The notes under the pieces are model-generated. The model saw nothing but the letters and a program-made list of their open reading frames with translations. It was not told the origin of the DNA and searched no databases. Source: Gammaproteobacteria bacterium (lineage in GTDB: Bacteria; Pseudomonadota; Gammaproteobacteria; UBA1113). Taken from it: 43,606 nucleotides of DNA. Position numbers and translations under genes: made by a program. The stretch is taken from assembly GCA_009885895.1 (NCBI GenBank), contig VFJV01000073.1:1-43606 (forward strand). Direction: 5' to 3'. Positions 36,535 through 36,719 of the stretch are shown one piece after another (position 1 is the first letter of the stretch; every line of letters starts with the position of its first letter).

Positions 36535-36719
36535 ATGACTGTTGCGAGATGGGTGCGGGCAACACCCCCTAAAAATCAAATGCGCAGAGTATATACTCAT
36601 AGCAGTTGGTTTTTAGGGTAGGCGCCAAACCCTCGAGCAACAGGAGTGTAGTATTCTACATGACTGTTGCGAGATGGGTGCAGGCAACACCCCCTAAAAA
36701 TCAAATGCGCAGAGTATAT
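36535..36719. repeat. One and a half tandem copies of the palindromic GAGTATAT-ended repeat element
   Basis: A 60-bp direct repeat (ATGACTGTTGCGAGATGGGTGC[G/A]GGCAACACCCCCTAAAAATCAAATGCGCAGAGTATAT) occurs at 36535-36594 and 36660-36719, with one mismatch and a 125-bp period. The full 133-bp unit is 36587-36719. It contains nested hairpins centred on GAGTATATACTC and on GTGTAGTATTCTACATG. Confidence 0.85.

Follow-up and report, generated by a model that had tools for sequence, protein, structure and literature searches.

Does the palindromic repeat at positions 36535-36719 of the DNA analyzed here belong to a family of mobile elements and, if it does, of what kind, or is it a duplication confined to its own surroundings? 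The first-pass annotation was made from the window, by which we mean the whole 43.6-kb stretch of DNA. It described about 1.5 tandem units of 133 bp with inverted arms and a central hairpin, likened them to a MITE or a REP without recognizing a named family, and set a genome-wide search as the deciding test.

Copies of the repeat in the window

Sequence reading agrees with the description of the repeat at 36535-36719, as does the repeat finder, which gives a direct repeat of 60 nt (36535-36594 versus 36660-36719) that is 98% identical. The ends of the proposed 133-bp unit, 36587-36719, do read as had been given when the window is read directly, GAGTATATACTC...GAGTATAT, but the natural unit is refined to the 127 bp of copy A (Table 1), and the repeat finder identifies GAGTATATACTC as the centre of an end palindrome. 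The same sequence is the junction at which a 5'-truncated copy adjoins copy A, with one TA in common, and the earlier 1.5 units are this truncated copy followed by the full copy A. The inverted copy placed at 18024-18156 is present as well: the repeat finder reports an inverted match of 144 nt, 87% complementary, between 18024-18167 and 36576-36719, and the profile search described below finds two full copies in the 43.6-kb window, A and B, that are 87% identical. A remnant that abuts copy B via a common TA is probably the stump of a second copy at that place.

Table 1. Copies of the element in the window and sequences that are, or may be, derived from it
Feature	Position	Strand	Evidence
Full copy A, 127 bp	36592-36718	+	Profile E = 5.7e-41; row 1 of the 100-copy alignment
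Make-up of copy A (best reading): TA + 123-bp core + TA	36592-36718	+	
Inverted repeats of copy A: left TATACTCATAGCAGTTGGTTTTTAGGG, right CCCTAAAAATCAAATGCGCAGAGTATA	36592-36718	+	
5'-truncated copy, right half only	36531-36593	+	Profile positions 64-127, E = 1.1e-15
Full copy B, 127 bp	18025-18151	-	Profile E = 1.8e-40
End-like remnant, about 18 nt, TATACTCTGCACAGTTGA	18150-18169	.	Sequence reading; inverted arm reaches 18167; weak profile match, E = 2.8
Miniature copy, 59 bp, two ends only, TAGAGTCCTAGCAGTTGATTCTTAGGC ... TAATAACCAACTGCTATGAGTATA	26914-26972	.	Repeat finder; profile 26930-26972, E = 4e-4
Probable remnant, 30 bp, TATACTC-TAAAATCAACTGCTCAGAGTATA	13174-13203	.	Repeat finder; weak profile match, E = 0.03
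10-mer GAGTATACTC, possibly a decayed remnant	10170-10179	.	Same as the tandem-copy junction elsewhere; no profile match

Only part of the list of fragments given by the first-pass annotation holds. The fragment at 26914-26972 is a miniature copy placed between a convergent lipoprotein gene and gltX, and the one at 13174-13203 is a probable remnant of the element, but the sites at 29516, 30721, 10170 and 10317 hold only GAGTATA/TATACTC motifs of 7-12 nt, which the profile cannot detect and which are not demonstrably derived from the element; it is uncertain whether the 10-mer among them is a decayed copy. The GAGTATA/TATACTC heptamer occurs at 18 sites in the window, against 3.2 expected. Nine sites lie outside recognizable copies, with heptamers at 5148, 10170-10179, 10317, 29516, 30723, 31473, 32928 and 43250, and several of these lone heptamers stand immediately before start codons or directly past stops; such sites might be preferred targets, boxes resembling a -10 element or leftovers of old copies.

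Two further observations concern individual copies. In the endonuclease III gene nth (ORF 12562-13212), the stretch with about 13 final codons and the stop (13174-13212) traverses the 30-bp remnant, and the endonuclease III family profile spans only residues 9-208 of the 216-residue product, so that the C-terminus seems to be supplied by the repeat. A 1.3-kb Logan contig from SRR8670882 (L001), the only public contig with an exact match to the efflux adaptor protein of the window, corresponds to window positions 18122-19438 and terminates within copy B, which indicates that the repeat breaks short-read assemblies.

A dispersed family in uncultured Gammaproteobacteria

The degenerate pattern TATACTCWNMGCAKTTGRNTTTTA, which fits the two ends of copy A as well as those of copy B, was used to scan one genome per GTDB species, and it recovered at least 98 eight-kb blocks from at least 10 species-representative MAGs (sequence blocks and contigs gathered in the scans carry L-numbers, for example L009). 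All blocks among the matches listed come from uncultured Gammaproteobacteria MAGs, one of which is labelled Legionellales, and opposed end patterns are 127 bp apart in 16 of the 27 pairs listed. The profile was built from those 27 double-ended copies, and searching the blocks and the window with it gave, once double-strand matches were removed, at least 100 full and at least 32 partial matches. The full copies per MAG, for eight MAGs, number at least 35, 22, 16, 11, 6, 3, 3 and 2. Beyond the copy that recruited each block there is about one further copy per 20-25 kb among the matches listed, a density from which each genome may be expected to contain roughly a hundred copies or more. The search that had been set as the deciding test thus finds a dispersed, multi-genome family of at least 100 full copies in a clade of uncultured Legionellales-like Gammaproteobacteria, and not a local duplication.

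The plain end pattern returned 9 blocks with about 5 real copies from the JGI metagenome collection, which implies that the host clade is narrow or rarely assembled. Four metagenome pattern matches were taken as chance, three being in coding sequence and one in an AT-rich genome. Chance matches antisense to one gene occur in three related metagenome contigs (L104:7703-7726, L107:2282-2305 and L108:3023-3046), the gene being, as we take it from reading by eye, that of a Clp-like AAA+ ATPase, and they are a caution for counts made by pattern only.

The family was rightly described as unrecognized. At the gathering threshold Rfam finds only tRNAs in the window, and at E up to 10 it gives two chance-level matches and no family in the element region; a BLAST search of the consensus against plasmids and phages returned no meaningful match, and the MITE literature searched contains no element matching the 127-bp family.

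Copies within a genome are typically 76-85% identical, with a maximum of 97.6% over the 100 copies among the matches listed, and for only 29 of those 100 is the nearest relative in the same MAG. Some insertions are common to sister species, and such copies diverge about as fast as their flanks. From these identities, nearest-relative counts and common insertions it follows that the family is older than these species, and insertion went on after the species split. No identical, very recent copies were seen among the 100 listed.

Anatomy of the element

The modal length of the double-ended copies listed is 127 bp, with the form TATACTC...GAGTATA. The terminal inverted repeats in the 100-copy alignment are about 26 bp long and imperfect: there is hardly any variation in the 26 positions at either end, which are inverted without being identical, and the end columns are at least 90% conserved over the 100 copies among the matches listed. 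The left end reads TATACTCAYAGCAGTTGRTTTTTAGG and the right end, read inward, TATACTCTTCGCATTTGATTTTTAGG, a difference that is kept in all species of the alignment; the termini TACTCAYAGCAGTTG...CAAMTGCKNWGAGTA are the ends by which a partner transposon would be sought. The interior is variable and gives rise to subfamilies with unlike hairpin tips, and an unpaired GGCAACA and the internal loops are conserved across species. Many copies are truncated or internally deleted, and the internally deleted forms of 50-64 bp, seen in L004, L034, L055 and at 26914-26972 in the window, consist of the two ends alone. Adjoining copies have either a TA in common, at the junction GAGTATATACTC (both window copies and L021), or a TATA, at the junction GAGTATACTC (L017, L023, L025 and L092, with this junction type also in L088). 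As the first-pass annotation had proposed, the element is non-coding, highly structured and intergenic, with 87 of the 100 copies among the matches listed clear of ORFs that are 100 aa or longer.

Insertion and target site

Comparison of flanks among MAGs that are 85-93% identical in syntenic DNA revealed more than 10 pairs of sites that are filled in one species and empty in its sister. At the clearest of these, L009 and L093 read GGTGACCAGCC[127 bp]CAAATAAT and L035 reads GGTGACCAGCC-AA-CAAATAAT, so that exactly 127 bp stand in place of a dinucleotide; L035 has a copy of its own 18 bp off that site, in the opposite orientation. The same gain, equal to the length of the element minus 2, was read by hand from the sequences in L052 versus L051/L090, L005 versus L015 and L074:6669 versus L020. 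Over the site pairs the length fits exactly in about four, is off by 1 nt in two and by 2 nt in another two; the pairs are only a handful and are diverged (80-91% identical), the imperfect ones lying in AT-rich DNA of 80-90% identity. At two of the empty sites AA stands in place of the expected TA, and two apparently empty sites carry remnants. The window was rejected as an empty-site reference for L072, as synteny breaks there.

The base before the element (position -1) is A in 36 and T in 9 of 76 copies among the matches listed, and the base after it (position +1) is T in 44 and A in 6 of these 76, a bias that indicates the palindrome A-TA-T as the preferred target; past the weak A at -1 the left flank is not fixed. 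Copies of different subfamilies and opposite orientation occupy exactly the same orthologous site in L065 (1021-1148) and L047 (2764-2895), which points to an insertion hot spot or to inversion in situ followed by divergence. Taken as sequence comparisons, these data fit best, short of proof, a core of 123 bp with a duplicated TA on either side. Such a duplication marks IS630/Tc1-mariner transposases as well as certain subgroups of the IS5 family, which make 2-4-bp duplications.

Search for a partner transposase

No transposase was found in the window, and among the matches listed the genes between and next to copies include no transposase, RAYT or Y1-like gene; for these positions the check for a RAYT or IS200/IS605-type gene proposed in the first-pass annotation came out negative, with no Y1 transposase. 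The genes between close copy pairs are housekeeping genes (orn, plsY, ttcA and ribosomal protein genes), and the idea of a RAYT partner was rejected for this reason. All-against-all comparison of 667 ORFs from about 750 kb gave no multi-copy ORF family, and in the same 750 kb no DNA stretch of 400 bp or more is repeated within a genome, what matches there are at that length being synteny between species. Solo ends (at most 5 mismatches) at 12 sites were considered as transposon ends, and all are remnants or miniature copies. One of the rejected candidates, a solo end in the groundwater MAG L088, has as neighbours genes for an outer-membrane efflux protein, an HlyD-family protein and an HDOD protein, with no transposase, and a partial copy in L036 that was considered as an autonomous element is merely degraded. 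A metagenome scan in which the end pattern was restricted to A or C at position 30, so that the MITE body would not match, gave 0 matches, and no autonomous IS with matching ends was found in the 750 kb or in this filtered scan. The missing transposase is weak evidence, because MAG assemblies tend to lose insertion sequences.

Conservation of the hairpin and strand asymmetry

The inverted arms and central hairpin of the first description are borne out by folding: as single-stranded DNA the copy A unit forms a single long, imperfect hairpin that has the central stem-loop as its tip (-31.7 kcal/mol), with z = -8.2 against a shuffle mean of -12.4 and none of 200 shuffles as stable. Copy B has a fold z of -7.2. 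For the 100 copies among the matches listed, 47 pairs make up the consensus fold, and the share of paired cells is 92.5%. In the alignment of these copies 26 pairs, in 162 cells, have changes on both sides, none of 500 column shuffles reaches any of five pairing measures, and sliding the partners by 1-3 columns leaves at most 15 double-change pairs and about 35-42% pairing. RNAalifold marks 19 of 30 pairs as compensated.

The pairing is not symmetric between strands. The top strand (+ for copy A) has 350 G-T cells versus 70 A-C cells, and its mean RNA fold is -56.4 kcal/mol against -45.3 for the complement, the top strand being more stable, by about 11 kcal/mol, in 97 of the 100 copies among the matches listed. 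Counted per pair position the G-U excess is 18 versus 7 (p = 0.04), the significance of this and of the other covariation, strand and orientation counts being overstated because related and orthologous copies are treated as independent. The direction of the asymmetry is consistent across stems, and the excess of G-U over A-C is present in all genomic contexts, not only in transcribed ones. The hairpin stem is thus kept by compensatory changes, and its pairing is strand-specific.

Gene context of the copies

Both full copies in the window occupy divergent intergenic regions, copy A between fadE and a lipoprotein gene and copy B between the gene of an 834-aa membrane protein and an RND efflux operon. 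The placement in divergent promoter regions noted by the first-pass annotation is therefore correct for these two copies, but it is not a family trait: of the 88 classifiable copies among the matches listed, only 21 are divergent, 44 being tandem and 23 convergent. Background intergenic regions at the same loci number 174 tandem, 71 convergent and 79 divergent, and since the copies follow about the same mix they have no preference for gene ends or promoters.

Ribosomal-protein operons hold copies and miniature copies between their genes, from which it follows that many copies must be transcribed. In tandem contexts the stable strand is sense in 30 copies and antisense in 14 (p = 0.023), and G-U to A-C counts are 84:15 in sense versus 30:15 in antisense copies (p = 0.016), both being modest effects and subject to the overstatement given above. 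This points to some selection at the level of the transcript, which would act on top of a family-wide inherited asymmetry. Around copy A neither a sigma-70-like nor a terminator-like site was found, and a promoter scan of copy B gave one consensus match in which the terminal TATACT acts as the -10 box; with one match at copy B and none at copy A, a built-in promoter was rejected as a general function.

Comparison with known elements

Bacterial MITEs are shorter than 200 bp, end in inverted repeats with TA at the termini and duplicate their target, and their transcripts fold into long stem-loops (PMC2229807). The element described here is likewise under 200 bp and non-coding, has terminal inverted repeats with 5'-TA-3' at both termini and numerous dispersed copies per genome, and occupies orthologous sites in one species that are empty in another, with a duplication of the target that is inferred to be TA. 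Of the two kinds named by the first-pass annotation, the MITE is the one that stands, with its inverted ends and its filled and empty sites; the REP/RAYT alternative does not, the element having no GTAG head and being too long. A census of MITEs in RefSeq, which left out most MAGs, counted 1.4 million copies, mostly genus-specific, with 1.6% resembling described families (PMC11602168). With MITEs so common, and most of them restricted to one genus, it is expected rather than surprising that an uncultured clade should have an unnamed family; the present one is new in name only, its kind being well known and common.

By analogy, the closest architecture appears to be that of the Correia elements of Neisseria, with RUP also close. 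Correia elements (CREE/NEMIS) are likewise small and non-coding, with terminal inverted repeats of about 24-26 bp that begin at TA and a duplication of TA (PMC2229807, PMC10969869), and Correia-containing mRNAs are cleaved by RNase III (PMC10969869). Both kinds occur as full and internally deleted forms (155/107 bp there, 127/50-64 bp here), in hundreds of intergenic copies whose transcripts would form a long hairpin, and both are without a known cognate transposase; copies in opposite orientation at the same site are reported there and seen here (L065/L047). They differ in host clade and in that there is no sign of built-in promoters here, an IHF-like ATCAA core in each end being recognizable by eye only. 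The Correia end TATAGCGGATTAAC... is unlike the TATACTCACAGCAGTTG of our element, with no sequence similarity evident, and we treat Correia as an analogue; by sequence the element does not seem to belong to Correia or to RUP.

RUP of Streptococcus pneumoniae, MITEEc1 and Nezha resemble the element in their length of about 107-130 bp, TA target and inverted-repeat ends, and RUP and IS630-derived MITEs are mobilized in trans by an IS630-family transposase (PMC2229807, PMC11602168). They also insert into or beside one another, as copies do here, and the probable TA duplication and A|TA|T preference seen here would fit an IS630/Tc1-mariner MITE. RUP differs in having a known partner, IS630-Spn1, with matching ends, whereas no partner was found here. 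ERIC/IRU is a 127-bp imperfect palindrome as well, intergenic and TA-ended, that is transcribed with neighbouring genes and whose RNA hairpin affects mRNA decay (PMC2229807, PMC10969869), but its sequence is unrelated, its perfect inverted repeats are only very short and it is distributed among enterobacteria.

The only named Legionellales MITEs in the literature searched are QMITE1 and QMITE2 of Coxiella burnetii, which share with the element the order, the placement in intergenic regions or at gene ends, the hairpin and the extension of reading frames by some copies (compare the nth remnant) (PMC5896051). QMITE1 is 300-400 bp long with variable 2-4-bp direct repeats, and QMITE2 is 150-190 bp long with 7-11-bp direct repeats and a GTAG REP targeted by IS1111 (PMC5896051); the 127-bp element with its TA duplication and no GTAG REP is set apart from both by size and duplication as given in the published descriptions. 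REPs and REPINs are likewise abundant intergenic hairpins, sometimes in arrays, kept by paired changes. REPs are 20-40 bp long, with a conserved GTAG-like head, no TA duplication and a link to a RAYT gene (PMC2817692), and the 127-bp element differs from them in size and in having no such head, with no RAYT gene found between or beside its copies. It differs from IS200/IS605 elements in its inverted ends and 2-bp length signature. IS200/IS605 elements have unlike ends and no target duplication, and they insert 3' of a fixed tetra- or pentanucleotide.

Origin and possible effect of the element

We give a probability of about 0.7 to the explanation that the element is a Correia/RUP-like bacterial MITE, moved in trans by a TA-targeting transposase, that forms an RNA hairpin when it is co-transcribed. 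It would be a non-autonomous DNA transposon of about 123 bp plus a duplicated TA, cut and pasted in trans by a DDE transposase that targets TA with a weak preference for A-TA-T and that, judging from the TA duplication alone, may be IS630/Tc1-mariner-like or belong to a subgroup of the IS5 family. A second layer would lie on one strand, where the top strand forms a hairpin of about 60 pairs that tolerates G-U but not A-C. Since this stem is kept by compensatory changes and is tolerant of G-U, co-transcription with neighbouring genes would most likely yield a long double-stranded RNA hairpin, which could alter how the mRNA is processed or how stable it is, be it by serving RNase III as a substrate or by protecting the 3' end, effects of the kind documented for Correia and ERIC elements. 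In the window it would act on the leaders or promoter regions of fadE and the lipoprotein gene (copy A) and of the 834-aa membrane protein gene and the RND efflux operon (copy B).

The strand asymmetry is the only feature past the ordinary for elements of this kind, and double-stranded cut-and-paste transposition alone does not account for a strand-specific fold. One alternative is a primarily functional structured RNA, a cis-regulatory hairpin or a small RNA, domesticated or spread by recombination, with mobility secondary or extinct. The covariation and strand-specific tolerance of G-U, the sense bias in tandem contexts with fewer A-C mismatches in sense copies, the internal loops and unpaired GGCAACA conserved across species, and the persistence of orthologous copies between species would all suit such an RNA. 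We still think it unlikely: copies sit in all intergenic contexts at near-background proportions, divergent regions that look untranscribed included, orthologous copies change at about the rate of their flanks, truncation or internal deletion has affected many copies, and the element has neither a match to an Rfam family nor a built-in promoter or terminator. Another alternative, a REPIN-like element in which an HUH/Y1 enzyme (RAYT or IS200/IS605-type TnpA) moves the hairpin of one strand, would need just what is seen in the fold, a long hairpin kept through compensatory changes and one strand that folds better in 97 of 100 copies, as a single-stranded DNA intermediate would select, with the asymmetry present in all contexts whether transcribed or not. 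We regard it as quite improbable nevertheless, since the two ends each begin with TA and form true inverted repeats, the net insertion is the element length minus 2 with a palindromic target preference A|TA|T, the 127 bp far exceed the length of a REP and include no GTAG-type head, housekeeping genes (orn, plsY, ttcA, ribosomal proteins) lie between paired copies, and no small ORF is repeated in about 750 kb.

It is conceivable, and to us similarly improbable, that the strand-specific hairpin is not a by-product and that the family spreads or is retained through one single strand. This could occur by an unrecognized HUH-type or other mobilization that leaves TA-flanked inverted ends, or through a domesticated hairpin that, with a dedicated protein partner, regulates many operons in bacteria of an intracellular type; little weight falls on the two routes even jointly. 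A local duplication or chance palindrome confined to the window, as the presence of only two full copies in 43.6 kb might have suggested, has next to no probability, the duplication being refuted by at least 100 full copies in 8 MAGs plus the window and the chance palindrome by shuffled controls that never fold as well.

Other features of the window and related contigs

Several features of the window are recorded here in their own right. Positions 1-712 contain a CRISPR array that has 11 or more repeats (GTTTCAATCCACGCGCCCGCACGGGGCGCGAC, period 66-68) and runs off the window start, and it is followed on the minus strand (888-8776) by a complete type I-C cas operon with cas2, cas1c, cas4, cas7/csd2, cas8c/csd1, cas5c and cas3. 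A tRNA cluster, Glu(CTC), Glu(TTC) and Ala(GGC), is found at 13223-13534 on the minus strand, and a homologue of plant-type (class B-like) acid phosphatases at 22399-23184. Tandem paralogous genes for FadE-type long acyl-CoA dehydrogenases of 820 and 792 aa lie at 31629-36466, with DNA segments about 71-79% identical at a spacing of 2390 nt, and a chagasin-family peptidase inhibitor (I42) is encoded at 37038-37487, shortly downstream of copy A. Beside the degraded copy in L036, from the MAG VFKP01, is a gene for a 1217-aa protein (4311-7964), the C-terminal part of which we take by eye to be a Rab-type small GTPase (…GDSGVGKSCLLLR…DTFGQERF…); if true, this would fit a Legionella-like, eukaryote-associated lifestyle.

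Conclusions

A repeat family with a profile and defined boundaries is an aid to annotation in a poorly known clade of uncultured, Legionellales-like bacteria. The repeat explains contig breaks in assemblies of the clade, and the presence or absence of its copies is usable as a marker for typing strains and species. As a clean TA-type MITE with a compensated, strand-asymmetric hairpin, the element bears on the question of whether selection on such hairpins acts at the level of RNA or of DNA.
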